A stretch of DNA of 64,000 bases from Bacteroidales bacterium (GTDB taxonomy: Bacteria > Bacteroidota > Bacteroidia > Bacteroidales > UBA932): NCBI GenBank assembly GCA_017634595.1, contig JAGBNC010000009.1, positions 5,559 to 69,558 on the forward strand, given 5' to 3'. How positions within the stretch are numbered: position 1 is the first letter of the stretch; every line of letters begins with the position of its first letter. The translations under genes and the position numbers were made by a program. The notes under the pieces were generated by a model, which searched no databases, was not told the DNA's origin, and was given only the letters and a program-made list of their open reading frames with translations. Below, piece after piece: positions 2,171 through 31,465 of this stretch.

Positions 2171-2320
2171 TGACTGCAAAATTAAGTAATTAAAGCAAGA
2201 ACGGCAATCCGGCATTTTGTATGCATCGGCCATAGGAACCAGCAGATCCAGGCCCGCCGCAGCCCTTCAGAAACTGCCAATCGGGCCCGGGAACGGCAAC
2301 CCCAGGCCCGCCAATGGTAC
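2171..2320 (-). repeat. 51-bp-unit element with promoter tail, copy 1
   Basis: Reverse complement aligns with 26110-26365: one 51-bp unit, a partial unit and the AT-rich tail containing ATTG-N20-TAATTTTG (2205-2208, 2177-2184). Confidence 0.85.
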
Positions 2321-2578
2321 TATTCACAGAGGAAGTCGATGGCCTCTTCGCGACGGATGCCTGCCTCTGACATAGCCATGTCGTTCATTTCGTTGTGAAA
2401 GCAAAGGTAGAAATGCTCTTTCACAACCCGGTTGCAAAACATTTTTCGTATTTTTGCAGTGTCATGAGAATGAGACTATCTCTATACACGTCCGGGGTCC
2501 GAGGCCGAAAAGAGGTGGCGGGCAGAACACCCGGAAAGGACATTCATTTCAAAGTAAGCCGATTAAAAGTATCTTACC

Positions 2579-3181
2579 ATGTTCTGGGATCATGTTGCCG
2601 GGGTCTATGACCTTTTTGCCAATTACTACAACGCGGGGACGCACAGGGTCCTCTGCAAGGAAGTTGCATCTTTGATTTCCTCCGATGACGAGGTGCTTGA
2701 ATGCGCATGCGGGACAGGTCTGCTCACCCGGCACATTGCTCCCGTCTGCCGACATATCTTGGCGACGGACTTCTCTGAGAAGATGCTGGAGAGAGCCCGG
2801 CATAAATGCCGGGATTATGGCAACGCCTCATTCGAGTACGCGGACATTCTCCACCTTAACTATCCCGACGAATCATTCGACAAGGTCATTGCGGCCAATG
2901 TCATCCATCTGCTGGATGAACCGCTGAAGGCACTTTCCGAACTGGACCGGGTCTGTCGGAAAGGAGGACTGATCATCATTCCGACCTATATGAACCGTGA
3001 GAAGGGAGAAGGTAAGACAAGCGGGTTCGCGACCGCTGTCGGGAAAGCCGGTGCGGATTTCAAGCGGCAGTTCACCTTCTCCAGCTACCAGCAGTTCTTC
3101 GCTGAAGCCGGTTACAAAGAGGCGTCTTTCAAGATGATTGAAGGACGTGTCCCTTGCGCTGTAGCGATTTTGTCTAAATGA
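2579..3181 (+). CDS. Class I SAM-dependent methyltransferase (UbiE-like fold)
   Basis: VLECACGTG motif I, ATDFSEKML, ADILHLNYPDESFDKVI. Confidence 0.9.
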   Translation: MFWDHVAGVYDLFANYYNAGTHRVLCKEVASLISSDDEVLECACGTGLLTRHIAPVCRHILATDFSEKMLERARHKCRDYGNASFEYADILHLNYPDESFDKVIAANVIHLLDEPLKALSELDRVCRKGGLIIIPTYMNREKGEGKTSGFATAVGKAGADFKRQFTFSSYQQFFAEAGYKEASFKMIEGRVPCAVAILSK

Positions 3182-3268
3182 GCCGTAATAACGCAGTTTT
3201 GCCATTTCTATGGCTTTCGATGAGGAAGTCGCATCGTCGGCGGACTCCAGTATTCGTATCTTAGTACC

Positions 3269-3670
3269 ATGAAGTACAAGCACACCAACAGGCCGGGCTT
3301 CTGGCTCGGGTTTATAGACTTCTTCACGGCAGGGATCTTCTTCCTGCTGTACATGCCGCTCGGCGGCCTTCAAGACGAATTGGATGACATCCTTGGCCGG
3401 AGGACGCAGCGCTACTGGGTGGCTTACCTTCTTGGCATCCCGACTCTCTTTGTCTACACGCTAATCTGGATGTCCAGGATAGCCGAGGAGTTGAAGGCTA
3501 AAGCCATTGCGCTTGGCATAGAGGGGCCATATACCTCCTGGTGGCACATGTTCGGCTGGAATGTCTTCGGCCTCCCCTTGATGGGCCCAGCCGTCGCAAC
3601 CTACCGCTTCTTCGACACGCTTAACAAGATTGAAAGAAAGCTCAACGAGTCTTCTCTGGCTTCTGTGTGA
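3269..3670 (+). CDS. Small membrane protein (DUF4234-like)
   Basis: 133 aa with three hydrophobic segments and a T-x-GIF pattern. Confidence 0.6.
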   Translation: MKYKHTNRPGFWLGFIDFFTAGIFFLLYMPLGGLQDELDDILGRRTQRYWVAYLLGIPTLFVYTLIWMSRIAEELKAKAIALGIEGPYTSWWHMFGWNVFGLPLMGPAVATYRFFDTLNKIERKLNESSLASV

Positions 3671-3691
3671 GCTGCTCAAGATCTGTCGGTT

Positions 3692-4303
3692 TCAAAGACC
3701 AAGCTGCGAGAGGAAGTGTCTGAAGATATCAGGACGGCATAGCAGGGGAAACACTAGACCATAGACGGCACCCCAGAAGTGGGCGCTGTGGCCTATGTTG
3801 TCCATGTTGCGCTTGGCCATGTACCAGCAGTACAGCAGGTACAGCGGTGCGAAAATATAACCCGGCACCGGAATAGGAATCAGGTAAATATAAATGCCCA
3901 TCGTGGGCTCGAAAAGGATGGAGGCGAAGAGGATAGCCGATACGGCTCCCGACGCTCCCACGGCGTTGTAGTTCCAGTCGTCCCTGAACTTTACGAGGTC
4001 CCATACGCTGGAGACGGAGACGGCGCTGATATATAGCACAATATACAGAACGCTGCCGAGAGTGTTGCCGAACGCCAGGACAAAATACTGCTCCACAACC
4101 CTTCCGAAGAAGAAGAGCGTAAGCATATTGAAGAAAAGGTGCCCCCAGCCACCGTGGACCAGACCATAGGTCAGCATCCGGTACCACTCCTTCCGATGCC
4201 AGACAGAATATGCGTTGAACAGGAGTTTGTTCCCGTTCAAAGTGCCTGTGAAGCACAATATGCTAACCAAGCAGGTAATAGCTATAAGGATGAGTGTCAG
4301 CAT
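3692..4303 (-). CDS. Rhomboid-family intramembrane serine protease
   Basis: WYR, HLFFNM, catalytic GASG and HSAHFWGA motifs; multiple TM helices. Confidence 0.92.
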   Translation of the reverse strand: MLTLILIAITCLVSILCFTGTLNGNKLLFNAYSVWHRKEWYRMLTYGLVHGGWGHLFFNMLTLFFFGRVVEQYFVLAFGNTLGSVLYIVLYISAVSVSSVWDLVKFRDDWNYNAVGASGAVSAILFASILFEPTMGIYIYLIPIPVPGYIFAPLYLLYCWYMAKRNMDNIGHSAHFWGAVYGLVFPLLCRPDIFRHFLSQLGL

Positions 4304-4596
4304 CCGCGGCCGTCAATACTGCATGCAGCCCCCATGTTCTCCGGGCGCGGCTCAAGTCCCACATCTTTGGAATAAAGCGTGACGGAACCGTCTTCTCTCA
4401 CATAGCAGGGAATACCTACATCTCCAATGGCTTTTGCTTCATCAAAGGCGGGGTTGGAATCCCTCAGGTCCAGGAACTGCTTCAGATTGCGTACATGTTT
4501 GCCGATATCGATTATCTCGAAATCAGGATTGCCTTCCACCTGCTTTTCTACGTATTCACAGTCCGGGCAGGTGTGCATAACGAACATCTTGATCAT
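4297..4596 (-). CDS. Glutaredoxin-related protein
   Basis: N-terminal CPDC and a later GIPC (cis-Pro loop). Confidence 0.8.
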   Translation of the reverse strand: MIKMFVMHTCPDCEYVEKQVEGNPDFEIIDIGKHVRNLKQFLDLRDSNPAFDEAKAIGDVGIPCYVREDGSVTLYSKDVGLEPRPENMGAACSIDGRGC

Positions 4597-4597
4597 A

Positions 4598-5176
4598 CTA
4601 CCATCGTTTTATTAACTCAAGAGCCTCGGATATCGCGGCCTTGATTTTTGTATCAATTTCTTCTTCGCTGCTATAGTCCATGTTCTGAGCTGCAATGGTT
4701 GTCAGCTCTCCGAGATTCCAAAGACTGCCCAGCGCTTTGAGATAAGGCGTGGCCTGCTCACGCGGATCACCGGTGGGAATATCCATTCCCCGCGTAGTGA
4801 TATAAAGCACCTTGGGGGCTTTGCAGAGGCCTATACAGGTCCGGCCATTGTCGGTGAAGGTGATGTCGAAAAGGGATGTCTGTTCGAAGAAGCACTTAAG
4901 TACCGCCGGGAAGCTCATGTCCCAGAAGGGTGCCGCGATGAGAATGCGGTCTGCCCCGGCAATGGCCGTTGCCGCCTCTTTTGCCCATGAAGGAATTGCC
5001 CCCATGCCTCGCTCTTTATACAGACCGGGATTCAGGGGAACGATATCCATATCCGGAAGCTCATATCGGGTAACATTGTACCTTCCTGCCAGCGCCTCGA
5101 TTACGGGCTCTGCGATCCGGAGCGTCCTGGAATCTGACTGACGCACACATGCATCAATGACTACAAGAGATTTCAT
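4598..5176 (-). CDS. FMN-dependent NAD(P)H oxidoreductase (AzoR/flavodoxin-like fold)
   Basis: SRT loop, ADRILIAAPFWDMSFPAVLK, YITTRG. Start taken at MKSLVV. Confidence 0.85.
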   Translation of the reverse strand: MKSLVVIDACVRQSDSRTLRIAEPVIEALAGRYNVTRYELPDMDIVPLNPGLYKERGMGAIPSWAKEAATAIAGADRILIAAPFWDMSFPAVLKCFFEQTSLFDITFTDNGRTCIGLCKAPKVLYITTRGMDIPTGDPREQATPYLKALGSLWNLGELTTIAAQNMDYSSEEEIDTKIKAAISEALELIKRW

Positions 5177-5331
5177 TTCTGGTGGCACGATGAATTAGTC
5201 CTCAAATTTACACATTTTCTGTGATATAGGCACCAGGTTCGGGGTGATATTGGAGTGTCAATGAAAATGCTTAGATTTGCAGAAGGTTATCGTCCCCGTA
5301 TCGCAACTGTTATTATAAAAAGATATTGATC

Positions 5332-5826
5332 ATGAAAAAGTTTCTCATCATTGCAGCCGTTGCCTGCTTGTCACTTCTTGCTTCCTGCACGAAGGAAGTT
5401 ACACACACAGGCGATGAAACCAGAACCTTGTATGGTATCTGGAGGCTTAGTTCAAAAAGCATTGAAACTCCAGCTTCCGACGGTACAGTTAATACCAGAG
5501 ATACTGATTATTCCAGCGTGCATTTCTATCTGGGGCTTTATGAACTCCCTATCCCTCACGCCGTAGCCAAGAAAGGCAGCTTCACTGCATTTGACCTTGA
5601 CGACGTGGATGTGGACTTCAACCGTTTCACATATAATGCTGATCAAAAGAAAATCAGTTTCTCAAAGATTATGAGCCTCACAGAAGGCCTCAAATACAAT
5701 ATGACTCTGATGGGCACATTCGATATTGTGGAGCTGAGCAAGACCAGGCTGGTCATCAAGCAGCAGGGGCTTGGCAATATAGCCACCATTTATTCTTACA
5801 CCAAAGAGTCTGAGGAGAAGAAATAG
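5332..5826 (+). CDS. Lipoprotein, lipocalin-like
   Basis: MKKFLIIAAVACLSLLAS-C lipobox, LYGIW motif, beta-rich C-terminus. Confidence 0.65.
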   Translation: MKKFLIIAAVACLSLLASCTKEVTHTGDETRTLYGIWRLSSKSIETPASDGTVNTRDTDYSSVHFYLGLYELPIPHAVAKKGSFTAFDLDDVDVDFNRFTYNADQKKISFSKIMSLTEGLKYNMTLMGTFDIVELSKTRLVIKQQGLGNIATIYSYTKESEEKK

Positions 5827-5831
5827 GGAAT

Positions 5832-6953
5832 ATGAACACATCATTTCCAGAGATTAAGAAGAACTTCGGATTCGGCTGTATGCGCCTTCCGATGAAAGGG
5901 CCCGAAGTGGACCTTGAAGAAACCTGCCGCATGGTAGATTACTTCATAGAAAACGGTTTCAATTACTTCGATACCGCGCATGGATACCTGGGCGGCAAGA
6001 GCGAGACAGCCTTGAAGGCCTGCCTCACAAGCCGTTACCCGCGTGAAAGCTATCTGCTGGTTGACAAACTCACCAACGGCCTTTTTGAGAAGAGCCCGGA
6101 GGGCATCCGCAAGTTCTTCGCATCCCAGCTGGAAGCTTGTGGTGTTGATTATTTCGACTTTTATCTAATGCATGCCCAGAACAGCGAATACTTCGAAGCT
6201 TTCAAGGCGTGCAAGGCTTACGAGACGGCCTTTGAACTGAAGGCCGAAGGCAAGGTTCGTCACGTGGGCATTTCTTTCCATGACAAAGCAGATGTGCTTG
6301 ACCGCATCCTGACTGAGTATCCGGCAATAGAACTGGTGCAGATACAGTTCAACTACATGGACTACGACGACCCTGGCATCCAGAGCCGCCAGTGCTACGA
6401 GGTCTGCGAAAAGCACGGAAAACCCATAGTCGTGATGGAGCCCGTCAAAGGTGGAACTTTGGCAAAGTTGCCCTCCGATGCGGCAGAGGTGCTTGAGTCA
6501 CTTGGTACTGGAGCGAGTCAGGCGAGCTATGCCCTTCGCTACGTGGCTTCTTTCCCGCAGATAATAATGACATTGAGCGGGATGAGCAACATGCAGCAGA
6601 TGACTGACAACCTGTCTTTCATGAAGGACTTCAAACCTTTGACTGAAAGGGAATTCGCTGCTATTGACAAAGTGAAAGAGATATTCATGTCGAAGCGTCT
6701 CATAGCGTGTACCGGCTGCCGTTACTGTACGGCAGGCTGCCCCATGGAAAGCCCAATCCCTGATCTTTTTGCCGACCTTAATGCCAAGGTGCTTCACAAG
6801 AACTGGAACAGCGAATGGTATTTCATGGTCCACACCCAAGGGCATGGCAAGCCATCCGACTGTGTTGAGTGCGGACAGTGCGAGGGAGTTTGCCCCCAGC
6901 ATCTTCCCATCATTGACACTCTCAAAACCGTCGCCAAGACGTTTGAAAAATAG
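5832..6953 (+). CDS. Aldo/keto reductase with C-terminal 4Fe-4S dicluster
   Basis: FGFGCMRLP, YFDTAHGY, VMEPVKGG, CTGCRYC...CP and CVECGQCEGVCPQ. Confidence 0.93.
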   Translation: MNTSFPEIKKNFGFGCMRLPMKGPEVDLEETCRMVDYFIENGFNYFDTAHGYLGGKSETALKACLTSRYPRESYLLVDKLTNGLFEKSPEGIRKFFASQLEACGVDYFDFYLMHAQNSEYFEAFKACKAYETAFELKAEGKVRHVGISFHDKADVLDRILTEYPAIELVQIQFNYMDYDDPGIQSRQCYEVCEKHGKPIVVMEPVKGGTLAKLPSDAAEVLESLGTGASQASYALRYVASFPQIIMTLSGMSNMQQMTDNLSFMKDFKPLTEREFAAIDKVKEIFMSKRLIACTGCRYCTAGCPMESPIPDLFADLNAKVLHKNWNSEWYFMVHTQGHGKPSDCVECGQCEGVCPQHLPIIDTLKTVAKTFEK

Positions 6954-6977
6954 AAGGAGATATCTCCGTTACAAAAC

Positions 6978-7017
6978 AAATGCTCCCCCAGCCTAGCTAA
7001 GGCCAGGGGAGCATTTT
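6978..7017. terminator. Bidirectional intrinsic terminator
   Basis: AAATGCTCCCC / GGGGAGCATTT inverted repeat between convergent genes. Confidence 0.75.
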
Positions 7018-7029
7018 AGATCTATACTG

Positions 7030-8634
7030 TTAACGAGTCTTGAAGTTGAAACGGATATCAGCGGGGATATTCTCCAGACCAAGATTCAGCACATCGGCAT
7101 CGTAGTCGGAGCCTCTCTTTGAATACTTCTTCTCGAATTCAAGAGCGAATGCTTTGTCTGCGGTAGCCTGAGTCTTGAGCACTATGGCAGAGATGTCGGT
7201 CAATGCCGATACCATCTTGTCATAATCCAGGACATACTTACCGGAAGCTTGCCTGTAGAAGGCGCCCTTCTCTTTCAAATAATTGAAAATAATAATGTTG
7301 GCTCTTCCAAGGGCGGAGCCTTCGCCAAAGCGCTCCGAGCGCACCAGAGAGGCGAAGAAAGTGGTAAGGGCATCCTGCTTGGTGAAGATATGATGGATAT
7401 CATAGTGGTCTTGGAGCTTGCATACAAGCAGCATTCCCACAGCGTTAGCCTTGATTTCCTCGAAGGTAAGTGCTGCGCTTCCCAAAGACCTCTGCGCATC
7501 GTTACCATCGGCAGTCTCCTTGACTCCAAGTCCGTGGGCCACTTCGCGGAAAACAATATTCCAGAAGAATGCCTCGGCGGAAAGATGCTCTGACGTTTCA
7601 GAATCAAGCATAAGCTCACCGGTAGGACCAACGATGCTGTTGTACTTGGCACGGATCACATTCTCCAGCAGAATTGTCCTGGTGCCTTTGTCACGCTGCA
7701 CGTCACTGTCAAAAGGCAGGTTGAGGGCAATAACCTTGATGCCTGCATTGGCCTTGCCGGCGTAGTACAGGGCATCATAAGAATAGATGTTGGAGCCGAG
7801 GCCGGGCTTGAAAGTCCTGTATGAAGGGTCGCCGGGCAGTTCTTCCTGGAACTCGCTGATGCGGGAAACGTACTGCATCAGTTCGTTTGTCTTGCTTTCG
7901 TTCTTGAGCAGAACGTATGCTTCATAGGAACGTTTGAGTCCGAGCAACTGGTCATCGGTTGTCTCGTTGGGACCGATAACAAGATCCATCTTGCTGTCGG
8001 TCATGTCGAGCCAGTCGATACCGCTCTGGTAGTAATTGTCTGTCTTGAGAGCCTGTGCCTTGCTGAGCAGGTATTTCTTTACGCTGGGCTTGATGGTAAT
8101 GTCAGCAGCCGCGTTCAGATAAGAAACGATTTTGTCGATATGCTCTTTATAGACATCGTGATACCATTCGGTATGCAAGGAACCGTCCTCAGCCCTGCGG
8201 ATTAGGGTGTAGGGGCTGTATTTGTCAGGATCATCGAGGGCTTCGAACTCTTCCACCGTCATGTCGGCGGGGTAGAACCCTGCCCCTGAAAGCCTGTCAT
8301 TGTACCCTTGTACGAATGACTTTCCGTCGGCACGGTCCCAAGGGCCGTAGTTAATCTCGGCGAAAGTCCTCTGAGCCGGATCGGAGATGCCGTCAAGCAG
8401 GGCCTTTTTATCGCCGAAGTACTGCTCCCAATACATGGCATCCACCTCATCGGCTGCGAAACGGTACAGATTAAGCACTTCTTTTCCGTTGTCGGAAATG
8501 CCGCTCAAGTCGGGAGCCTCTACGGTGACCACCGTGTAATTATGAACTTTCCTATTGAAAGGAGATTTGGGCTCTTCTTTGCAAGAAACGACTGTCGCAA
8601 GAATCAGAAGCCCGAAAAACAAATGCTTTTTCAT
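7030..8634 (-). CDS. Peptidase M49 (DPP III)-like lipoprotein with degenerate Zn motif
   Basis: Lipobox VVS-C; INYGPWDR, GFYP and AGIKVIALNLPFD family motifs; FREVAHGLG replaces FHEVAHGLG; EEIKA retained. Confidence 0.85.
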   Translation of the reverse strand: MKKHLFFGLLILATVVSCKEEPKSPFNRKVHNYTVVTVEAPDLSGISDNGKEVLNLYRFAADEVDAMYWEQYFGDKKALLDGISDPAQRTFAEINYGPWDRADGKSFVQGYNDRLSGAGFYPADMTVEEFEALDDPDKYSPYTLIRRAEDGSLHTEWYHDVYKEHIDKIVSYLNAAADITIKPSVKKYLLSKAQALKTDNYYQSGIDWLDMTDSKMDLVIGPNETTDDQLLGLKRSYEAYVLLKNESKTNELMQYVSRISEFQEELPGDPSYRTFKPGLGSNIYSYDALYYAGKANAGIKVIALNLPFDSDVQRDKGTRTILLENVIRAKYNSIVGPTGELMLDSETSEHLSAEAFFWNIVFREVAHGLGVKETADGNDAQRSLGSAALTFEEIKANAVGMLLVCKLQDHYDIHHIFTKQDALTTFFASLVRSERFGEGSALGRANIIIFNYLKEKGAFYRQASGKYVLDYDKMVSALTDISAIVLKTQATADKAFALEFEKKYSKRGSDYDADVLNLGLENIPADIRFNFKTR

Positions 8635-8638
8635 ATTG

Positions 8639-10324
8639 TTATAACATTATCATTATCATCAACTGGGCCGCTACAACACGCAGGAACATGGTAAGCGGAT
8701 AAACGGTTGCATAATTGACGGCAATTCTGCCGTTGCCGTACATTTGCTCCGAGAATGAAAGGAGTGCCGGATCGGTGGTGCCGCCGGCCAGGAGACCGCA
8801 GATCTTGAAGAAATCAAGCTTCATGACGTAGCGTGCTATCAATGACACCAGCATCATTGGCACAAGAGTGATTATAACTCCGTACAGGACCCACATGTAA
8901 CCACCTCCTACAAGGCTCTCAACGAAGTGCTCGCCGGCACCGACTCCGACAGCCGCCATAAACAACGAGATGCCGATTTCACGTATCATCAAGTTGGCGC
9001 TCAGAGCGGTGTAGGTGGTAATCCTGAGCTTGGGACCGAAGTGGCCGAGCAGAATAGCAACAATAAGGGGACCTCCAGCTAGTCCAAGCTTCAAGGGCTG
9101 GGGCATGGAAGGGAAGCGGATAGGAATCATTCCTACCAGCACGCCCAGTGCGATGCCGAAGAAAATCGGCACCAAATTAGGCTTCTGAAGGGTCTCAGGC
9201 TGGTTGCCGACGAGTTGAGAAAGCCTGTTGATGCCTTGCTCGGAACCTACTACCTGAATACTGTCTCCCACTTTGAGAATTAAATCAGGGTCTGCCTGCA
9301 GATCAATACCGGAACGAAGGATTCGTGTCACGGTGACACCATACTTCTGACGTATATTGAGCTTGCGGAGGTTCTTGCCGGTGATGGAAGATTGAGTGAT
9401 GGAGAGTCTGCGCGACATGAGTTTTGCGCCCGGCTGCTCCCATTCATTCATATCAACAGGATAGTCTTCGCCGAAGATTATACGGGCCTTTTCCTTATGC
9501 TGTATATCTGTGACAATAAGCAGCTTATCTCCCTCCAAAAGGGGCTGCTTCAAATCGGGCATAGATACCACACCTTTCCTCATCAGGCGCGTAACCACCA
9601 AGTGGTCGGCGTTTTCTTCGCCCACAATGTCGAATAAGCTTTTCCCGAATATTGCCGGGTTGGCCACGATGCAGGCAAGCCTGAAAGCACTCGCTTCTTC
9701 ATCTTCGCCTTGAGAGGCCATGTCTTTCTCCTTGGGCAAGTTGACTCTGAATATGGCTTTGCTCAGGAGTATGACGCCTATGGCTCCCAGCACGCCAAGA
9801 GGATAGGCCACTGCATAAGCAGACGCTATGCCCGCAGATGCATTTGCAGCTTGTGCTGCGCTGCCTCCGGAGGCAAGCGTGGCATCTACCATAGTCTGCT
9901 GGGCTGCACCAAGCCCGGGAGTGTTAGTAACAGCTCCGGACATGATACCTGTCATGATGTCAAGTCTCTCACCTGTAATGAGATGAATGGCATATGTGAC
10001 AAGCACTGCGGCCAGTACCAATCCAATGGCAAGCATGTTCATGGGCAAGCCGTCTTTGCGGAAAGAGTGGAAGAAACCGGGACCGACTTGCAAGCCAATG
10101 GCGAAAACGAACAAAATGAGTCCGAAGTCTTTGATAAAAGAGAGCATTACGGGGTCTATCTTCATGCCTAAATGCCCCAGTAAAATGCCCATAAACAGAA
10201 TCCAAGTTGTTCCGAGGGAGATCCCTTTAAACTTGAATCTGCCGAGGTAAAGTCCAAGGGCAATGACCAGCGCCATGATCAATATTGCTCCGGCTGTGCC
10301 CCCTTGAGTTAGCAAATTTTTCAT
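8639..10324 (-). CDS. AspT/YidE/YbjL-family transporter with TrkA-C domains
   Basis: FVFAIGLQVGPGFF, SGAVTNTPGLGAA, LGLAGGPLIVAILLG, YATVYPLTMFLR; two soluble RCK_C-like repeats. Confidence 0.92.
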   Translation of the reverse strand: MKNLLTQGGTAGAILIMALVIALGLYLGRFKFKGISLGTTWILFMGILLGHLGMKIDPVMLSFIKDFGLILFVFAIGLQVGPGFFHSFRKDGLPMNMLAIGLVLAAVLVTYAIHLITGERLDIMTGIMSGAVTNTPGLGAAQQTMVDATLASGGSAAQAANASAGIASAYAVAYPLGVLGAIGVILLSKAIFRVNLPKEKDMASQGEDEEASAFRLACIVANPAIFGKSLFDIVGEENADHLVVTRLMRKGVVSMPDLKQPLLEGDKLLIVTDIQHKEKARIIFGEDYPVDMNEWEQPGAKLMSRRLSITQSSITGKNLRKLNIRQKYGVTVTRILRSGIDLQADPDLILKVGDSIQVVGSEQGINRLSQLVGNQPETLQKPNLVPIFFGIALGVLVGMIPIRFPSMPQPLKLGLAGGPLIVAILLGHFGPKLRITTYTALSANLMIREIGISLFMAAVGVGAGEHFVESLVGGGYMWVLYGVIITLVPMMLVSLIARYVMKLDFFKICGLLAGGTTDPALLSFSEQMYGNGRIAVNYATVYPLTMFLRVVAAQLMIMIML

Positions 10325-10332
10325 ATCGGCCG

Positions 10333-10340
10333 CAAAGATA
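10333..10340 (-). promoter_or_regulatory. Bacteroidetes -7 promoter element
   Basis: TATCTTTG on the minus strand just upstream of the 10324 start. Confidence 0.55.
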
Positions 10341-10390
10341 CAGATTTTGTTGTATATTTAGCTTGTCTCGATAAGAAATAAAAAGAATCT

Positions 10391-22364: not shown

Positions 22365-22418
22365 TTTTGACCTTGTTAGAATTATGCAGGGTCCTTTTCT
22401 TTTGGTATCTTCGCACTT

Positions 22419-22649
22419 ATGATTCTGAACACCGGAGGACGGACGGATACTGTCCAGTATTATAGCGAGTGGCTGCTGAACCGCTTCCGGGAGGGGTACG
22501 TCCTGTCCCGGAATCCGCTGTTCCCGAACATCGTGAACCGGATTGATCTGAATCCGGAGGTGCTGGATGTGGTGGTGTTCTGCTCCAAAGACTACAGCCC
22601 CATCCTTCCGCGCGTGCCTTCCATTGAGGACAGCATCCGGACTGTTTGA
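22419..22649 (+). pseudogene. DUF1848-family remnant (internally deleted, truncated)
   Basis: MILNTGGRTDTVQYYSEWLLNRFREGYVLSRNP is a DUF1848 N-terminus; PILPR is joined directly to VPSIEDSI; stops at 76 aa. Confidence 0.8.
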
Positions 22650-22725
22650 TTAGAATTCAGTATCTGATGCGCATCGATGCGGAAGCGCCTCGGCTACGCA
22701 GTCGGTGAGTTCATGAAGATAGCGG

Positions 22726-23616: not shown

Positions 23617-23771
23617 AATATTTGAGAATAATTGTTAGTTCTACGCTAATGTATTTTGCTCGGCAAAGTTAGCTTTTTTTAACAAATAACGCATCTGAAA
23701 AGCCCTAAAGGCATGATTGCATTCGTAACTTATTGAAAGATGGAACGGTACGGTAGCACCTGACATTGCTA

Positions 23772-24677
23772 TTAGCGTGTCATTTTTTTTCCAAGAAACT
23801 CGGATGGAGTAATGCCGGTCACCTTCTTGAAGAGACGGGTGAAGTGGTGCGGGAACTCGAAGCCAAGGAGAAGGGCGGTTTCGCCAATGTTGTGGCCGTT
23901 CATTAGGAGGTTCTTGCCCTGTTCAATCACAAATGAATGGATGTATCCAATGGCCGTGCCGCCCGTGGATTTGTGAATCACATCACCCAGGTAACGTGGT
24001 GAATAGGCCAACTGCCCCGCGCAGTACTGGACGGAGGGAATGCCGATTTCCATTTGTCTGCCGTCCAGATAATACTCCCGCAGCAGGTTGTGGAAGCGTT
24101 TCAGGATGTCCGATGAGGTCTTGTCTTCCTTGGAGAGCTGGCGTTGATAGATGCGCTGGCAGTATTCCAAGATCAGGCGGATGTAACCCAAAATTACGTT
24201 CCTAAGTGCCGGGGAATCCTCGTTCTCCTGAAGCTCGTGCCTGAGCTGTGTGAGCAGCTGAATGATACGGCCCCATTCCGCCGGTTCCATTATTAAGGTC
24301 TCGGTAGAGAAATAGGAGAAGAAGTGATACTCCTTCATCCTGTATTCCAGATCGGTTCCGCGTACCAGTTCAGGAGAGAACAGCAGAACCCATCCGCTGA
24401 TATAGAGGTCCTCGCCATTGTCTTCCTTGCCGCCGATTTGACCCGGCTCCACAGCGAAGATTGACCCTTCGGCAGCATCGAACATCTTCATGCCATAGGT
24501 GAGTTGCTTGGGAAAGTTTCGCTGTATGAAGAGTCCGTAAACGCCATATCGGTTAAGGCTGGTACGGACTGGCGATACTTCGTCATAGTGGATGATGCTT
24601 ACCAGGGGATGCAATTCCGGAGCCCCTACTGAATGGGCGTAAACATTGGGGCTGGTGATATGGAGAATGCTCTTCAT
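23772..24677 (-). CDS. AraC-family transcriptional regulator
   Basis: HPLVSIIH N-terminus; SPRYLGD...LGFEFPHHFTRLFKKVTGITPSEF. Confidence 0.93.
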   Translation of the reverse strand: MKSILHITSPNVYAHSVGAPELHPLVSIIHYDEVSPVRTSLNRYGVYGLFIQRNFPKQLTYGMKMFDAAEGSIFAVEPGQIGGKEDNGEDLYISGWVLLFSPELVRGTDLEYRMKEYHFFSYFSTETLIMEPAEWGRIIQLLTQLRHELQENEDSPALRNVILGYIRLILEYCQRIYQRQLSKEDKTSSDILKRFHNLLREYYLDGRQMEIGIPSVQYCAGQLAYSPRYLGDVIHKSTGGTAIGYIHSFVIEQGKNLLMNGHNIGETALLLGFEFPHHFTRLFKKVTGITPSEFLGKKMTR

Positions 24678-24805
24678 TGCTCTTTAAAAGGTATGGATTC
24701 ATGCAAATATATGAAGTATTCTGCGATATTGGTAAATATTAGACAAAAATAGGTAAGATAATACAGTGCAGACCGATTACCTTTGTAACATAAAAACACA
24801 GTGAT

Positions 24806-25885
24806 ATGGCTATCAAGAATTTAATCACAGTTTCCATAGCAGCACTGACACTGCTGGCCTGCAATTCAAGCACAACCGAGAATATGAGTACACTGAATCT
24901 TACCCAGGATTGGGACAAGACCTTCCCGAAATCCGAACTTGTAAACCACTGCAAGCTTACCTTCCATAACCGCTATGGCATTGAGCTGGCGGCAGATATG
25001 TATGTTCCCAAGGATGCCGACGGCAAGCTTCCCGCCATTGCGGTGAGCGGCCCCTTCGGCGCAGTGAAAGAGCAAAGCAGCGGCCTCTATGCACAGCACA
25101 TGGCAGAGCGTGGCTTCGTGGCCATTGCCTTCGATCCTTCCTTTACCGGTGAATCCGGCGGTGAACCGCGCAGGATGGCTTCTCCGGACATCAATACTGA
25201 AGACTTCCTGGCTGCGGTGGACTTCCTTTCCACCTGCGAGCTGGTGGATCCTGAACGCATCGGCATCATTGGCATCTGCGGTTTCGGCGGCATGGCAGTG
25301 AATGCAGCAGCGCTCGACCCGCGCATCAAGGCCACAGTGGCATCTACGATGTACGACATGAGCAAGGTGAATGTCGAGGGGTACTTCGCCAGTGAGGATA
25401 CTCCCGCACAGCGTCAGGAAAAGCGCCGCGCTCTGGCTGCCCAGCGCACGAAGGATTATGCCTCAGGAACTTATGAGCGCGCCGGCGGTGTCATCGATCC
25501 GCTTCCTGAAGATGCGCCATGGTTCGTCAAAGACTATCACGCTTATTACAAGACAGCTCGTGGCTATCACAAGCGCAGCGGCAACTCCAACGACGGCTGG
25601 AATGTTATCGGTTGCCAAAGTTTCATGAACCAGCCCCTCCTGGCCTGGGCGCATGAAATCGAGAATCCCGTGCTTCTTATCCACGGCGAGAAGGCCCACA
25701 GCCGCTATTTCAGCGAGTATGCCTTTGAGCGTATGACTGGAAAGCATGTCGTCGGCGAGAGTGCCAAAGCAGGCAACAAGGAACTACTTATCATCCCTGG
25801 AGCATCTCATGTGGACCTGTACGACGATGTGGCGGGAGTGATTCCTTACGACAAGATCGAGGCTTTCTTCAAATTACACAATTAG
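24806..25885 (+). CDS. Alpha/beta hydrolase lipoprotein (YcjY-like)
   Basis: SGPFGAVKEQ, FDPSFTGESGG, nucleophile elbow GICGFG, HGEKAHS and HVDLYD; lipobox LLA-C. Confidence 0.9.
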   Translation: MAIKNLITVSIAALTLLACNSSTTENMSTLNLTQDWDKTFPKSELVNHCKLTFHNRYGIELAADMYVPKDADGKLPAIAVSGPFGAVKEQSSGLYAQHMAERGFVAIAFDPSFTGESGGEPRRMASPDINTEDFLAAVDFLSTCELVDPERIGIIGICGFGGMAVNAAALDPRIKATVASTMYDMSKVNVEGYFASEDTPAQRQEKRRALAAQRTKDYASGTYERAGGVIDPLPEDAPWFVKDYHAYYKTARGYHKRSGNSNDGWNVIGCQSFMNQPLLAWAHEIENPVLLIHGEKAHSRYFSEYAFERMTGKHVVGESAKAGNKELLIIPGASHVDLYDDVAGVIPYDKIEAFFKLHN

Positions 25886-25889
25886 TTCG

Positions 25890-25985
25890 TATCTTTGCAT
25901 CGCGCATCGGAGGCTGGCAGTCGGTACTGCCAAAGCCGGATAAGATGTCGGGACCGCCCGGTTGTCTTGTCCGGCGCTTTTTGTT
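25890..25985 (+). ncRNA. Candidate structured small RNA or attenuator
   Basis: TATCTTTG promoter at 25890, then hairpin GGCAGT/ACTGCC and a long hairpin GCCGGATAAGAT...GTCTTGTCCGGC with a T-tract. Confidence 0.35.
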
Positions 25986-26055
25986 ATAAAAGGGTAGTGA
26001 GAATTATGTCAAAAGAAATGAAAAACCTGGAAAGGGACAGCATCTTTGTCGGCCA

Positions 26056-26080
26056 GGGAGCGCAATCACTGCGCTTCCGG
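26056..26080. repeat. REP-like hairpin, copy 1
   Basis: GGGAGCGCAATCACTGCGCTTCCGG; 24/25 identical to 61762-61786. Confidence 0.7.
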
Positions 26081-26109
26081 GGTTTCCACCAGCACCTCCC
26101 ACCAGCCGC

Positions 26110-26365
26110 CACGTTTGTCATTGCGGCGGGCCTGGATTTGCCGTTTCCGGGCCCGATTGGCGGTTTCTGAGCTCCTGCGGGCCTGGATTTGCCGTTTCCG
26201 GGCCGGATTTGCGGTTTCTGTGCTCCGGCTGGCCTGGATTTGCCGTTTCCGGGCCGGATTTGCGGTTTCTGTGCTCCGGCTGGCCTGGGTCTGCTGGTCC
26301 TTATGGCCGGTGTATACAAAATGCCGATTTGCCGTTTTGTTTTAATTACTTAATTTTGCAGTTAG
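26110..26365 (+). repeat. 51-bp tandem-repeat element with promoter tail, copy 2
   Basis: Units start at 26126, 26177, 26228 and 26279 (partial). Tail contains TTTG (26328)-N19-TAATTTTG (26351). Confidence 0.9.
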
Positions 26366-26387
26366 ATAAATCGGTATTTACTTTACA

Positions 26388-26768
26388 ATGGCTCTTAAAT
26401 TTCCCCGTACTGCTATGATAGTTACTATCGTTATTATTGCTGCCACTTTCCTTGTCGTGGTGGGTGTAATGCTGGCCTATTGGCCCAAGGGCATCTCGGT
26501 CAACGAGAACAACCAAATCCAGTTGGGCACGTACATAGGCAAGCCGCGTCTTATTCCTGCTGATGAAATATCTATCACTGACATGCCAGAGGGCCTGTTG
26601 AACCATCTGATCAGGACCAACGGCATGAGCCTTGGCAAAATCAACTACGGCCACTTCAAGAACACAAAAACCGGGCAGAAGATGTTCCTCTATCTCACCG
26701 GTAAGGAAAGCAAAATCTGCTTTACTTACAATGGGGAGTTATATGTTGTGGATGATTGGCGACAGTAG
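26388..26768 (+). CDS. Membrane-anchored bacterial PH-domain protein
   Basis: N-terminal TM helix; IRTNGMSLGKINYGHFK and FLYLT pattern. Confidence 0.7.
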   Translation: MALKFPRTAMIVTIVIIAATFLVVVGVMLAYWPKGISVNENNQIQLGTYIGKPRLIPADEISITDMPEGLLNHLIRTNGMSLGKINYGHFKNTKTGQKMFLYLTGKESKICFTYNGELYVVDDWRQ

Positions 26769-26780
26769 TTAAAGTCCCTG

Positions 26781-26832
26781 TTTATTGGTATAACAAGGCC
26801 CCAGTAGTCCTAATGGATTGCCGGGGCTTTGT
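26781..26832. repeat. 52-bp hairpin repeat, copy 1
   Basis: 49/52 identical to 62429-62480; all differences fall in the loop. Confidence 0.85.
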
Positions 26833-26859
26833 GAAAATATATATAATGAAAGCGCTTGT

Positions 26860-27441
26860 TTACTGCTCGTCAATGGCGGCTTTTACGTTGGCACGGAACT
26901 GCTTCACATGCTTCTCCACACGGTTGATGCCGCAGAGGGCTACCAGATAGGAGACGCCCGTGGAGATGATACCCAGGCCGATGAGCCAGGAGAGGGTAGC
27001 GCCTGCAACGTCAGGATTCTTGAGGCCGAAGAAGCCAAGGACGGCTCCGGCAATACCCAGAAGGAGAACACCCCACCAGGCGGAGAAGCCGGCCTGCTTG
27101 TAGTCAAAGCTCTGGACGGCAACGATGATGCCCTCGATAAGAACCCACCAGGCGAATATTACCGGCAGGGATACAGTCACGAAGAGATTGTGTCCCAGGA
27201 AGATGATACCGAGGATAATCTGCAGGATGGAGGACAGCATGCGAGTGCCGCTGTTGGGAAGATAGGCCTGCGTCTTGAAGGTAAAGATGAGCTGCGAGAT
27301 ACCGCTGAAGAGGGTGAAGCAACCGATCATCCAAGCAGTTGAAAACAGTGTTGCAGCAGGATTGGCAATGCAAACGATGCCCAGGACGATGAGGAGGATG
27401 CCGGCGACGGCCAGCCAGATTTTGGTACTTGTCTTAATCAT
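26860..27441 (-). CDS. HdeD/DUF308-family membrane protein
   Basis: Repeated GILLIVLGIVC...NP...W..G units; about six TM helices. Start at MIKTST. Confidence 0.85.
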   Translation of the reverse strand: MIKTSTKIWLAVAGILLIVLGIVCIANPAATLFSTAWMIGCFTLFSGISQLIFTFKTQAYLPNSGTRMLSSILQIILGIIFLGHNLFVTVSLPVIFAWWVLIEGIIVAVQSFDYKQAGFSAWWGVLLLGIAGAVLGFFGLKNPDVAGATLSWLIGLGIISTGVSYLVALCGINRVEKHVKQFRANVKAAIDEQ

Positions 27442-27461
27442 GATTAACGAATTATTTGGTG

Positions 27462-28211
27462 TTAGTTTTTGATCCAGGTGATGCGTTCCCAAATTCCACG
27501 CGGAATGAGTCGCCAGAAAAAAGTTGCCACGCGGAAACGCCAGTCAAATGTATAGACGCGTTTTTTGCGTCTCAAGGCTTTCATGATGTGGTCCGTGGCC
27601 TTTTCCTTGGACATCAGCATAGGGTAGTGCTTGTCGGGATTCAAGATATCCGTCGCCACGAATCCGGGCCGGATGTCCGTAAACCGGACCGGGATATGCT
27701 CCATTCTGGAAAGTTGGGCCAGGGCCGAAAGGTAAGTACTCTGCATCCTTTTGGTTGCTGAATACGCAGGGGCTGTCCCAAGTGCCGCGACACCGGCAAC
27801 GGAGGTAATGACCGCCACGTGTGCCTGATTGGCATAAGCATATTCATGGCTCCTGACATAGCCGATGAAATGATCCACCATTCGCACCATGCCTTCGCAG
27901 TTGGTACGTACCGTGCGAATCTCCTTTTCCAGATTCAGCTCCCGGTTCTGGTAGCCAACGCCTGAGGCATAGAAGAACAGATTCGGAGCCCCGGTCTGAT
28001 CCAGAAGAGTATCCAGCGCCTGAACGGAATCGTCACGAGTGACATCCATTGTGGAAATAAACACTTTATCAGCACCATATTGTGAGCGGAAGGCTTCCAA
28101 GGCCCCCGTCCTGCGTCCGGTAATACCAACCTTCCAACCGCCCTCGACGAGGCGGACTGCAACTTCACGTCCGATGCCGGAAGTGGCTCCGATGATGATG
28201 GCTGTGTTCAT
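27462..28211 (-). CDS. SDR-family oxidoreductase
   Basis: IIIGATSGIG, catalytic YSATK, IRPGFVAT. Confidence 0.92.
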   Translation of the reverse strand: MNTAIIIGATSGIGREVAVRLVEGGWKVGITGRRTGALEAFRSQYGADKVFISTMDVTRDDSVQALDTLLDQTGAPNLFFYASGVGYQNRELNLEKEIRTVRTNCEGMVRMVDHFIGYVRSHEYAYANQAHVAVITSVAGVAALGTAPAYSATKRMQSTYLSALAQLSRMEHIPVRFTDIRPGFVATDILNPDKHYPMLMSKEKATDHIMKALRRKKRVYTFDWRFRVATFFWRLIPRGIWERITWIKN

Positions 28212-29050
28212 AATTCTATGACATGCGGTTTGATGTCAGGGTCATGATTGGCGAGGGACTCTACGCATTCAGGAAGCATGCTTTGCTCCCTGATCCACTG
28301 GAGGGACTGGCGCTGGAGTTTCTTGTCCTGGCATACGCCGGAAGTGATCATCTGCTCCCAGGATTTGCGGGCGTAGCCACCGTCGGAGAAGAGCAGGACG
28401 AACTTGCCTTCGTCGTCCTTAATCTTTACGGCACAAAGGCCTGCGCAGTGGCCGGGAATGTTCACCATCACCACGGAGCCGTCACCAAAGAGGTCGTATG
28501 AGCGTCCGACAGGTCCTTCCGTCCCATTCCAGTCGAAGAGTTCCAAGTCCATACCCTTCCACCAGCGCTCCTGATAACGGATGCGCTCGGTCAAACCCTT
28601 CTTGATGCTCGCCATCTCATCGCGGGCAACGAGGATATGTTTGGCTCCCATGAGCTGGGAGAGGCCGTTGGCGTGGTCGCAGTCCAGATGCGTAAGGAGT
28701 ACATAATCGATATCGGAGGGCTTAAGCCCCATCTTGGCCAGCTGCTCATCGATGGCCTGGCCTTTGGCTATTCGGCCCTGATTGACCATATAGAGCTGCC
28801 AGGAACACAGGGACTTGATCTGCGCCTTCCTGTCATAGACTCCGTCCGGGCTCATCTCGCGGTGCCATCCTGTATCGACAAGGATGCGTCCCTTTGGGTG
28901 TTCAACCAGATAGGCGCTCACCGGGAGCCAGATCCAGTCTTTCTTGGGAGTAGTGATGCCGGAGGCTTTTATAATACTGCACTTGTCTCCGCCGAAAGGG
29001 AGATAAGGAGAGACGTGAACTTCGCCTGTATGTAAGACGTGTATTTTCAT
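28208..29050 (-). CDS. N-acyl homoserine lactonase-like MBL hydrolase
   Basis: LVDTG, THLDCDH, PGHC, SDGGY and C-terminal NHD. Confidence 0.8.
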   Translation of the reverse strand: MKIHVLHTGEVHVSPYLPFGGDKCSIIKASGITTPKKDWIWLPVSAYLVEHPKGRILVDTGWHREMSPDGVYDRKAQIKSLCSWQLYMVNQGRIAKGQAIDEQLAKMGLKPSDIDYVLLTHLDCDHANGLSQLMGAKHILVARDEMASIKKGLTERIRYQERWWKGMDLELFDWNGTEGPVGRSYDLFGDGSVVMVNIPGHCAGLCAVKIKDDEGKFVLLFSDGGYARKSWEQMITSGVCQDKKLQRQSLQWIREQSMLPECVESLANHDPDIKPHVIEL

Positions 29051-29127
29051 GATGTTTGTGACTTGGGTACAAAGGTAGAACTTTGTTTTGGGTTAGTGAT
29101 TGCCGATTTGACTGAAAATATTATCTA

Positions 29128-30045
29128 TTGGTAAGAATTAGCTGCGCGTATTTGAAAACTATGAGTAATTTGATTACTTTTGTGGCCGAAATGCGTAGCA
29201 GACCCAATATCGAAGAACTATCTATCGCTTTCCTGAGGGAAGAAGTCAATTACGACGTTGTCGGAGATTACTTCTCCCACGACGACTTCGGTATCATTAT
29301 GGACTACCGTTGGGCGAAAGGTCCTCTTTTGCATGCCGACCGTCCTTACCGTCTGTCGGGAGCACGTCTGATGCGGGTGCTGGAAGGGAGCATCCGGTAC
29401 AGGATCAACCTGCTGGAATATACTGCTTCAAGAGGACAAGTCATCTGGATTCCCGATGCTGCGCTGGTGGAGTTCCTGTCGGCCACGGAGGATTACCGCC
29501 TACAGGCCATCACCTTCAATGACAAACATCACAGGCGGGAGGATGCTAGAGTGTTCACCATATCGGAGGCAGAATGGCATCAGTTGGACAGTCTGGCTAT
29601 TCTAATTCGCAGCGTGGCCGGGAATGAGCCCTTCCCGAAGCATGTTGTTGAAGATTTGATATCGGCCTATCTGGGTATCCTGGAGCAATCGGCCACATTC
29701 AATGCTGCTCCGGCGCCGCTACCGGCGCGCAAAGAGCAGTTGTTCGGGCAGTTCATCTCATTGGTTGGCACACATTTTCGCGAGCACAGGGATACAGCTT
29801 TCTATGCCCGGCAGCTTTGCCTTGCATCGCACTATCTGAGCCCTCTCATCAGACAGGCCAGCGGAGAGTCGCCGTCCACCTGGATCACCAAAGCCGTGAT
29901 CTCCGAGGCAAAAGTTCTGCTTAAACAATCCGACAAGACCGTCCTGCAGATTTCAGAAGAATTGGGCTTCCCAAACGCTCCCTTCTTCTGCCGCTATTTC
30001 AAGCGTGAAACCGGAATGACGCCTAGTGAGTATAGGGAAAGGTAA
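29128..30045 (+). CDS. AraC-family transcriptional regulator (start uncertain, possibly 29161 or 29191)
   Basis: FYARQLCLASHYLS...ISEELGFPNAPFFCRYFKRETGMTPSEYR. Confidence 0.9.
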   Translation: MVRISCAYLKTMSNLITFVAEMRSRPNIEELSIAFLREEVNYDVVGDYFSHDDFGIIMDYRWAKGPLLHADRPYRLSGARLMRVLEGSIRYRINLLEYTASRGQVIWIPDAALVEFLSATEDYRLQAITFNDKHHRREDARVFTISEAEWHQLDSLAILIRSVAGNEPFPKHVVEDLISAYLGILEQSATFNAAPAPLPARKEQLFGQFISLVGTHFREHRDTAFYARQLCLASHYLSPLIRQASGESPSTWITKAVISEAKVLLKQSDKTVLQISEELGFPNAPFFCRYFKRETGMTPSEYRER

Positions 30046-30168
30046 ATCCCCATTTCTCGGTCTGTTTTACTAATCCCTCCATAAGCTCCTACCAAGTTTC
30101 CACCTGCCCGGCTCACTTCTCCCCAAAAATGTGTAAGTTTGTAAGTTTAATACGAGAGACAATAAGAA

Positions 30169-30786
30169 ATGAAAGTTTTAATTATCAACGGGAGCCCACG
30201 ACTTAAAGGAAATACCTCCATTGCTCTTGCAGAAATTGCAAAGACACTTGGAGAAGAGGGTATTGACAGTGAAACTGTGTGGATTGGCAACAAGCCTATA
30301 AGAGGATGCATTGCTTGCAACCAGTGTGGTAAGAAGCCGGGAGCATGCGTCTTCAATGACGATATCTGCAACGAAATAAGTGCGAAATATGCCGCTGCTG
30401 ACGCGCTAATCGTAGGCTCTCCCGTTTATTACGGGCAACCTAATGGTGCACTCTTATCCATCATACAGCGTTCCTTCTATTCCAACGGTGGTAATATTGC
30501 CGGAAAGCCGGCCGCAGCGGTAGCTGTATGCCGAAGAGGAGGAGCAACGGCAGCCTTTGAGACGCTCAACCTCCCGTTCCAGATGATGAACATGCCCGTT
30601 CTCGGTTCTCAGTATTGGAACATTGTCTATGGTCGCGAGCCAGGTCAGGCTGCGCTTGATCAGGAAGGTCTTCAGACCATGCGGGCCTTGGCGCACAATA
30701 TGGCCTGGTTGCTGAAGGCAACGGATGGCAGGCCCGCACCCGGCCGCGGTGACGAGCCGTGGACGCCAATGCATTTCATCAGGTAG
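30169..30786 (+). CDS. Iron-sulfur flavoprotein (flavodoxin family)
   Basis: INGSPR.KGNT, GCIACNQC, GSPVYYG, RRGGAT. Confidence 0.9.
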   Translation: MKVLIINGSPRLKGNTSIALAEIAKTLGEEGIDSETVWIGNKPIRGCIACNQCGKKPGACVFNDDICNEISAKYAAADALIVGSPVYYGQPNGALLSIIQRSFYSNGGNIAGKPAAAVAVCRRGGATAAFETLNLPFQMMNMPVLGSQYWNIVYGREPGQAALDQEGLQTMRALAHNMAWLLKATDGRPAPGRGDEPWTPMHFIR

Positions 30787-30813
30787 CCACAGTACCAGTA
30801 TATTCCCGTTTAG

Positions 30814-31101
30814 ATGAAACATAAAACCTTAAACATAAAGTTAAAGTAACTGTTATTGACAAGAAACTCTATCCTGAATACGCTCGTCAAAACTACAGCC
30901 GATCCTAACAGCGTTGCAGGTGGTCCCAAGATGCCACATTGCTCAGAAGCTTGGGATGCCATCAGCCGATACATATATACTGGTCTGCAAGGCGGCTCTA
31001 TTATGAAAGGCTGGATGAAACATGAAAATGAAATGATTTGTTGCTGCTCTGATGGAACACGGCCGGTCATCTTCAAAGTGGAGAGAATAGGCGAAGAATG
31101 A
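30814..31101 (+). pseudogene. TIGR04076-family remnant with internal deletion and frameshift
   Basis: N-terminal KHKVKVTVIDKKLYPE in one frame joins LNTLVKTTADP...CCSDGTRPVIFKVER in another at CCTGAA (30873-30878). Confidence 0.8.
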
Positions 31102-31250
31102 ATGTACAATAAGAAAATACCTCGATACCAGTTGCGGGTTTCGCATTGCGCTGGAGGTGATGGGCGGTAAATGGAAGCCGTACATCATCTATGAGTTGAC
31201 GCAGGGCCCTAAGCGACCGAGTGAGCTGCAACAGCTGCTACCGCACTCCC
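31102..31250 (+). pseudogene. HxlR-family regulator remnant
   Basis: MYNKKIP, a frameshift, then SCGFRIALEVMGGKWKPYIIYELTQGPKRPSELQ; the C-terminal half is missing. Confidence 0.8.
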
Positions 31251-31346
31251 GGACATGCGTGCATTTTCAAGTTGATGGGAATGTGACCCTCGGCACGGCT
31301 TTCCCCGTTCCGGTTGCCTTTGCTACCAGCACATCCAACCTGCTGT

Positions 31347-31465
31347 CACGTTTACCATTGCAGCGGGCCTGGACTTGCCGTTCCCGGGCCCGATTGGAGG
31401 TTTTTGTGCTGTGGCGGGCCTGGATTGGCGTTTTCCGGGCCAGATTGGAGGTTTCCGAGCTCCGG
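31347..31465 (+). repeat. 51-bp-unit element, copy 3 (no promoter tail)
   Basis: Units start at 31363 and 31414; shares the CACGTTT...CATTGC lead-in with copy 2. Confidence 0.85.

Follow-up and report, generated by a model that had tools for sequence, protein, structure and literature searches.

Introduction

The REP/BIME, REPIN and Correia (Neisseria) families are short, GC-rich, hairpin-capable extragenic repeats, single or in tandem and specific to a species, which number tens to hundreds of copies with defined ends or inverted repeats; REPINs go together with a RAYT transposase, and Correia elements can supply promoters. Nearer to the present subject, the BrickBuilt element of Porphyromonas gingivalis has a spacer-less 23-nt unit in 1 to 22.8 copies, occurs as 19 copies that are always intergenic, has a leader and tail that may be full, partial or absent, and displays small inverted-repeat ends and segments with promoter elements (Klein et al. 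2015, PMC4596501). Putative mobile promoters, identified as sequences with at least 80% identity over at least 50 nt upstream of non-paralogous genes, include families shared between genera, and their mechanism of movement is unknown (Matus-Garcia, Nijveen & van Passel 2012, PMC3575422). Finally, rAID-1 arrays are low in GC, co-directional and headed at their 5' side by a XerD-like recombinase (Ross et al. 2019, bioRxiv 10.1101/471110). Here we analyze a dispersed element built around a 51-bp tandem repeat in a rumen Bacteroidales bacterium (assembly GCA_017634595.1), starting from a 64,000-nt window, i.e., the whole stretch of DNA under study (C5:5559-69558 of a 2.59-Mb genome in 36 contigs). 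C numbers refer to contigs of this genome, and L numbers label the metagenome contigs and family-genome stretches compared with it.

The element is a promoter-bearing intergenic repeat, or putative mobile promoter, for which we reinterpret the mechanism: we lean, if only slightly, towards its copies being one lineage-private upstream class of a promoter/leader module found across the family, spread by recombination at the short core of that module. In anatomy it is closest to BrickBuilt, with which it shares residence in the Bacteroidales, species specificity, intergenic position and a variable, spacer-less tandem unit between a distinct leader and tail. In contrast with BrickBuilt, the unit measures 51 nt instead of 23 nt, inverted-repeat ends are lacking, there are four composite copies and seven fragments instead of 19 copies, the head is a recognizable remnant of a Fic gene, and the core of the tail is shared across genera.

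Results

Anatomy and copies of the element

An earlier note on this DNA, made from its letters alone, had reported three copies of an element with a 51-bp unit in variable number, and Tandem Repeats Finder, direct reading and BLAST place all three where it did. However, the family is larger, since BLAST reveals a fourth full copy and seven unit fragments elsewhere in the genome. The element as then described (units and tail) also proves incomplete, as it omitted a conserved 5' head and a shared 5' leader. The features in the window are the following (cargo denotes the gene directly downstream; wHTH, winged helix-turn-helix).

26056-26127, plus strand: head of copy 2, the reverse complement of the last ~20 codons, the stop and 13 nt beyond it of a Fic/wHTH-type gene
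26128-26312, plus strand: array of copy 2, 51-bp units at 26128-26178, 26179-26229 and 26230-26280 and a 32-nt degenerate unit at 26281-26312
26313-26380, plus strand: tail of copy 2, -33 TTTG at 26328-26331, N19, -7 TAATTTTG at 26351-26358, leader CAGTTAGATAAATCGGTATTT at 26359-26379
26388-26768, plus strand: cargo of copy 2, a 126-aa membrane-anchored protein, ATG at 26388
2155-2319, minus strand: copy 1, 10-nt head remnant at 2310-2319, unit at 2256-2309, degenerate unit at 2224-2255, and tail
Tail of copy 1, minus strand: ATTG at 2208-2205, N20, TAATTTTG at 2184-2177, diverged leader to 2155; ATG at 2143
1181-2143, minus strand: cargo of copy 1, a carboxylesterase remnant of 320 aa with an internal deletion
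31323-31468, plus strand: copy 3, truncated head at 31323-31364 and two units at 31365-31466, without a tail
31157-31300 and 31451-31551: flanks of copy 3, an HxlR gene fragment (Pfam) and an alpha/beta-hydrolase-like fragment
61762-61842, plus strand: head-only fragment, a decayed Fic/wHTH 3' end without units, 75-80% identical to the head of copy 2 and to the end of the Fic gene on C16

Tandem Repeats Finder detects the 51-bp period twice, as 3.2 copies at 26124-26288 (94% matches, score 288) and as 2.1 copies at 31363-31468 (82%, score 140), and direct reading of 2100-2440 gives copy 1 a full unit and a degenerate or partial one, about 1.6 units in all. In BLAST comparisons, copy 1 is 83% identical to copy 2 over 158 bp (2155-2312 versus 26227-26380, E=3e-38) and 82% identical to the fourth copy over 157 bp; for copy 3, identity is 83% with copy 2 over 142 bp (E=3e-35) and 83-84% with copies 2 and 4, similarities far beyond chance. 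Copy 4, or the C19 copy (C19:88778-89133, minus strand), combines four units with a degenerate one and the same tail, stops 9 nt short of the ATG of a gene that encodes a 74-aa membrane protein, and lies in a core-like neighborhood (tRNA-Ser, ileS, lspA). The four composites have unrelated flanks and an identical joint between head and first unit (..CATTGCnGC joined to GGGCCTGG). Seven further places hold solitary or double units without a tail (C13:22257, C13:148133, C34:6920, C12:1617, C28:24041, C4:14087 and C36:96556), all of them intergenic and several beside core genes (pgk, aspS, lgt, tRNA-Ala), for a genome total of about 25 units at 11 loci. The C19 copy is ~280 bp downstream of the tRNA-Ser(TGA) gene (L003 2123-2208), and one solitary unit adjoins the tRNA-Ala gene (C12; L011 1595-1668); tRNA 3' ends are classical integration sites.

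Identity among copies 1, 2 and 4, the three that precede a gene, is 82-88% over 157-254 nt (BLAST) and their cargos (the carboxylesterase remnant, the 126-aa and the 74-aa membrane proteins) are unrelated, as in putative mobile promoters. Whereas these form a statistical class without a defined anatomy, here the anatomy is resolved, and a short core has partners on both sides. The shared similarity continues beyond the -7 box and stops 8-12 nt before each ATG, indicating that a shared 5' leader is part of the element.

The length of the unit, a multiple of three (17 codons), and the fact that all frames are open across the arrays might point to a coding repeat of a decayed or unannotated protein. 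However, the variation among 12 units is spread over the codon phases (30/16/21), neither a start nor a promoter is present upstream, the frame of the arrays relative to their flanks differs, and the solitary units are intergenic; we give this explanation next to no credence, and rejected it for the lack of three-periodicity in the variation of the units.

The tail as a promoter

Promoters of the Bacteroides primary sigma factor carry TTTG at -33 and TAnnTTTG at -7, and the start of transcription follows a few bases downstream. The genome contains 150 matches to TTTG-N18-21-TAnnTTTG, as opposed to 12-23 in block shuffles (6- to 12-fold enrichment), and 43% of the 150 lie at most 40 nt upstream of the ATG of an open reading frame (ORF) of at least 80 aa. 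The strings that the earlier note had read in the tails of copies 1 and 2 (ATTG-N20-TAATTTTG and TTTG-N19-TAATTTTG) are present as it gave them. Copies 2 and 4 carry the consensus in full, at 29 and 24 nt from the ATG, respectively, while in copy 1 ATTG replaces TTTG. The note's further point, that the tail stands at the right distance before unrelated start codons, also holds, for three genes when the C19 copy is counted. The tails display the features by which Bacteroidetes sigma-A promoters are recognized (-33/-7 boxes, a spacing of ~19-21 nt and a position 20-40 nt before the start codon). Because the known Bacteroides -33/-7 consensus is matched, the tail very probably has promoter activity. 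Scans for sigma-70-type promoters and terminators remained at chance level, as expected for Bacteroidota.

The number of units varies between strains, and a 25-nt, 76% inverted repeat flanks the promoter of copy 2, so that one might envisage a phase-variable, invertible promoter or a repeat-length switch. Against a length switch, the units lie upstream of the -33 box and their number leaves the -33/-7 spacing unchanged. Against inversion, neither copy 1 nor copy 4 has the inverted repeat, which is private to copy 2 and leaves a gap of only 37 nt between its arms; inverted repeats at 45 leader sites (see below) do not outscore those of shuffles, and no invertase is nearby. Either form of switch appears very improbable, and both an inverton and terminal inverted repeats were rejected.

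A leader core shared across the family

In a search of 400 genomes of the same family, all of the weak matches fell on the last 40 nt of the query, and in these matches the string TAnnTTTG-N1-2-AGTTAGATAAATCGG(A/T)ATTT immediately precedes unrelated genes of other genera. When metagenomes were scanned for TTTG-N1-2-AGTTAGATAAATCGGWATTT, this retrieved 42 sites on 40 rumen-type contigs, mostly with an ATG 0-25 nt downstream. Taken together (contigs L035-L074 and family genomes L014-L022), a core of ~40 nt, AATGATTAnC-TTTG-N1-2-AGTTAGATAAATCGGAATTT, precedes more than 20 unrelated accessory genes, among them a Vat-type acetyltransferase, TfoX_N, FMN reductase, CrcB, SdpI, a GNAT-YoaP fusion, BD-FAE and other esterases, DUF1349, DUF4932, DUF6624, lipoproteins and a 95%-identical orthologue of the 126-aa protein. 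Conservation by column is near-total from about -17 (AATGATTAnC) to ..GGAATTT and then collapses immediately. As to the comparison of unit and tail with the genome and relatives that the earlier note had proposed, further copies are found in the genome, the unit has none in about 440 relatives, and the core of the tail recurs in other genera.

Clustering of 118 nt upstream and 110 nt downstream of 44 core sites yields 21 upstream classes and 29 downstream, or cargo, classes that are combinatorially associated. One upstream class fronts up to four cargos, and conversely the 126-aa gene is found behind three upstream classes, including the 51-bp class, and the Vat gene likewise behind three; in other genomes, orthologues of the 126-aa protein with 95% amino-acid identity lie behind the two other classes. 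Two contigs carry two modules in tandem. In the genome under study, two tails alone, those of copy 2 and of the C19 copy, have the leader within three mismatches, that of copy 1 being more diverged. A leader-like 5' untranslated region (..AATAATCGGTATTTGAG-ATG), but no unit, precedes the homologue nearest to the 74-aa cargo (78% identity); homologues of this cargo sit in non-syntenic contexts and provide no strict empty site.

Several upstream classes have direct repeats of their own, e.g., GTGACC-N4-GTGACC twice. In L016, L019, L038, L044, L048 and L060, two pairs of hexamer repeats with a 10-bp period (GTGACC-N4-GTGACC, GTGGTC-N4-GTGGTC, GCGACC-N4-GCGACC) lie ~50-95 nt upstream of the -7 box and look like putative activator-binding arrays.

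The setting recalls rAID-1 and integrons, in that unrelated small accessory genes of Bacteroidales are separated by a repeated intergenic sequence and shuffled between genomes. In contrast with these systems, no recombinase family recurs among 66 neighboring proteins of 15 core loci, and the shared sequence is a promoter/leader at the 5' end of the gene and not an attC-like 3' site. Neither the leader module nor the unit is present in PLSDB, INPHARED or IMG/VR, and a plasmid, phage or viral origin was rejected on these grounds. Rfam has no family at gathering thresholds in the whole window, and permissive searches of the element and of a class-A module were empty; nor was the leader string found in the literature searched.

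A private array that varies between strains

In contrast with the wide distribution of the core, the unit was found neither in 24 genomes of the same genus and 16 of the same order nor in the 400 of the same family, and it is absent from the JGI metagenomes and IMG/VR. Its exact pattern has no match in 185,579 species-representative genomes, where a looser pattern gives five single matches in unrelated phyla, against ~4 estimated by chance. The same species, with the element, recurs in several ruminant-gut metagenome assemblies, and the 51-bp array seems to be private to this species or lineage.

At the locus of copy 2, all assemblies have three units, the array being identical in other ruminant-gut assemblies. 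At the C19 locus, most assemblies have four units, whereas in L079 one unit alone runs directly into the tail (GGGCCTGGATTTGCCGTTT joined to TGTTTTAATTA). This difference makes the array a true variable-number repeat, and the fusion indicates that the -33 region of the tail (CGATTTGCCGTTTTG) is homologous to the core of the unit (GGATTTGCCGTTTCC), i.e., derived from a unit. Another strain (L030, L032) is 99.9% identical to the window up to the stop codon of the 126-aa gene, after which it has a gene for an AlkZ-like DNA glycosylase instead of the DUF308 gene, the breakpoint coinciding with the gene end. Two short ruminant metagenome contigs join different places: L077 links the head of copy 2, and L081 the left flank of C13:22257, to the tail of copy 4 and its 74-aa gene; both may be products of recombination via the units or chimeras made in assembly. 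In other assemblies of the species the element occupies the same sites, and no empty-site allele was found among them.

The head is the end of a Fic gene

Each large copy carries a conserved head 5' of its first unit. On the minus strand, the head of copy 2 reads ..ARRNDKRGGWWEVLVETPEAQ* and over 94 nt it shares 85% identity with the 3' end of an intact gene for 357 aa (C16:120977-122050), whose product combines Fic with a C-terminal winged helix (Pfam). It also holds a 9-bp hairpin, GGAGCGCA-N5-TGCGCTTCC, as predicted by folding. The head is complete in copy 2, where it extends 13 nt past the stop codon, and becomes successively shorter in the C19 copy, copy 3 and copy 1 (10 nt). The joint shared by the four composites indicates one ancestor in which the Fic gene end was already joined to the array, and their left ends were trimmed differently after this common origin. 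The unit resembles the last 19 nt of the head (TTTGCCGTTGCGGCGGGCC versus TTTGCCGTTTC--CGGGCC; also TTTGCCGTT-C--CGGGCC), with 5 of 500 shuffles scoring as well, which suggests that the array grew out of the Fic gene end by slippage. The earlier note had stated that its reading would fall if the copies were all remnants of the upstream region of one decayed gene; this is partly the case, as the head is a Fic/wHTH 3' end.

Transposition appears unlikely

The earlier note had proposed a mobile promoter akin to MITEs (miniature inverted-repeat transposable elements) or REPs, and it could be argued that the element is truly transposable, non-autonomous and mobilized in trans (a MITE, a REP/REPIN-like or an IS200/IS605-derived element), with the promoter as a passenger. 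Consistent with this, the element is species-specific and scattered, core intergenic regions with no relation to one another hold solitary units, a GC hairpin of 7-10 bp is possible in each unit, and BrickBuilt offers the precedent of a minisatellite inside a MITE (PMC4596501). However, a repeat search finds no terminal inverted repeats on copies 1, 2 and 4, the junctions show no target-site duplications, and the ragged left end is truncated at four different points, so that the mechanism claimed by the note is not supported. The hairpin (10-bp stem, 9-nt loop) is no more stable than in shuffles (z=-1.5), without compensatory changes among 12 units. Copy number is very low for such an element, and the units, extragenic as in REP/BIME/REPIN families, are likewise few by comparison (about 25 at 11 loci; RAYT was not searched for). 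Within the window, a weak remnant of an integrase C terminus (62625-62996) is all that was found, in a search that did not extend to RAYT, IS200 or transposase genes of the whole genome. Transposition in this sense is unlikely, and by the features compared here the element does not belong with MITEs, REPINs, invertons or integron/rAID-1 systems.

Cargo genes and decayed surroundings

The product of the 126-aa gene has no Pfam or NCBIfam match and no family assignment, and the 'PH-domain' label that the earlier note had given it finds no support there. The other gene it had named, a carboxylesterase, does match Pfam COesterase (E=4.7e-24), but what is left of it is a 320-aa remnant with an internal deletion, the best stretch covering only profile positions 25-128 of 515. 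Many other accessory genes in the window are internally deleted or fragmentary: besides the carboxylesterase (1181-2143, minus strand), HxlR (31157-31300) and the hydrolase-like peptide (31451-31551), these include DUF4143 (31548-31952, minus strand), AraC (61965-62345) and the integrase (62625-62996). The peptide that abuts copy 3, ADILDITAAIRYL.., has no Pfam match, and by eye its sequence reads like the middle of an alpha/beta hydrolase.

Such decay raises the alternative of passive debris, whereby one ancestral locus was spread by a few segmental duplications or rearrangements and trimmed by deletion, the position before start codons merely reflecting where deletions stopped. The collapsed genes that fill the window (carboxylesterase, HxlR, hydrolase, DUF4143, AraC and the integrase remnant) agree with it, as do the beheading of copy 3 itself between two gene fragments, the joining of different copies in L077 and L081, where units may be recombination substrates, and the age of the copies (82-88% identity). 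On the other hand, all three tails keep the -33/-7 consensus and the leader, 25-33 nt from an ATG, despite 12-18% divergence elsewhere, the C19 copy sits in a core-like neighborhood, and the same leader core fronts intact genes in many genomes. We hold debris as the whole explanation to be doubtful.

Two observations concern the surroundings of these copies. A 22-codon ORF (MNDMAMSEAGIRREEAIDFLCE) at 2320-2385 (minus strand), with a -7 box of its own (TACCTTTG), ends one codon before the head remnant of copy 1, and gene callers in other assemblies place a 40-aa gene at this site. Downstream of the 126-aa gene, a 52-bp hairpin-containing segment (26781-26832) recurs with 94% identity at 62429-62480, where it adjoins the AraC fragment, a Fic-end fragment and the weak integrase remnant.

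Discussion

Our results are most compatible with a composite, non-coding module made of the reversed 3' end of a dead Fic/winged-helix gene, a 51-bp minisatellite and a tail, the latter comprising a unit-derived -33 region and ending in a -7 box and a ~20-nt 5' leader. The minisatellite may itself descend from the Fic gene end. One ancestral composite would have been copied to at least four loci, three of which now lie directly before unrelated accessory genes, while copy 3 would be a fourth placement whose tail and cargo start were lost, most likely by deletion. Copying would have proceeded by recombination rather than transposition, with a -7/leader core of ~26-40 bp (AATGATTAnC-TTTG-N1-2-AGTTAGATAAATCGGAATTT) as the likely joint. 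That this core is common to 21 upstream and 29 cargo classes fits recombination at the core better than transposition, and recombination there would explain why the ATG is always the same short distance away, why the flanks are unrelated and why the hallmarks of transposons are lacking. Rumen Bacteroidales would swap upstream classes and cargos around the core, which tends to travel with the cargo. Transcription of the downstream gene would begin a few bases after the -7 box, and the array would be an unstable upstream element, be it an array of activator sites, an insulator or a junk, neutral minisatellite, whose copy number may tune the promoter.

Several points weigh against this scenario. 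Selection for expression is not evident, given that one of the three cargos is a gene remnant and another a tiny ORF. For RecA-dependent exchange, 26-40 bp make a short core, and the 66 proteins near the modules at 15 loci include no recurrent recombinase. Moreover, recombination at a leader core does not account for the seven solitary units in core intergenic regions (by pgk, aspS, lgt and tRNA-Ala), and the similarity by which the unit would derive from the Fic gene end is of marginal significance only.

A bolder version, which we put forward tentatively, would make the core a dedicated exchange joint of rumen Bacteroidales around which 21 promoter-side modules, the 51-bp array being a lineage-private one, and 29 single-gene cargos are interchanged. 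The logic would be integron-like, with the joint at the 5' end of the gene and no linked integrase, and the number of units in the array would tune output; we see this too as no better than a minor possibility.

The working expression signals of horizontally acquired or accessory genes are poorly understood in Bacteroidota, where promoter and translation-start signals depart from the textbook. The locus provides a resolved example, in which a private, length-variable array is fused to a consensus promoter before unrelated genes, and ties this example to a short promoter/leader core that is reused by many rumen Bacteroidales with many partners. Should the core serve as a joint for exchange or as a shared point of control, it would account for the way in which accessory genes gain expression in this group and would provide a portable expression part for the genetics of rumen Bacteroidales; if not, the element would be a modest addition to the promoter-bearing intergenic repeats. 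The part most worth pursuing is the family-wide leader core with its combinatorial partners.

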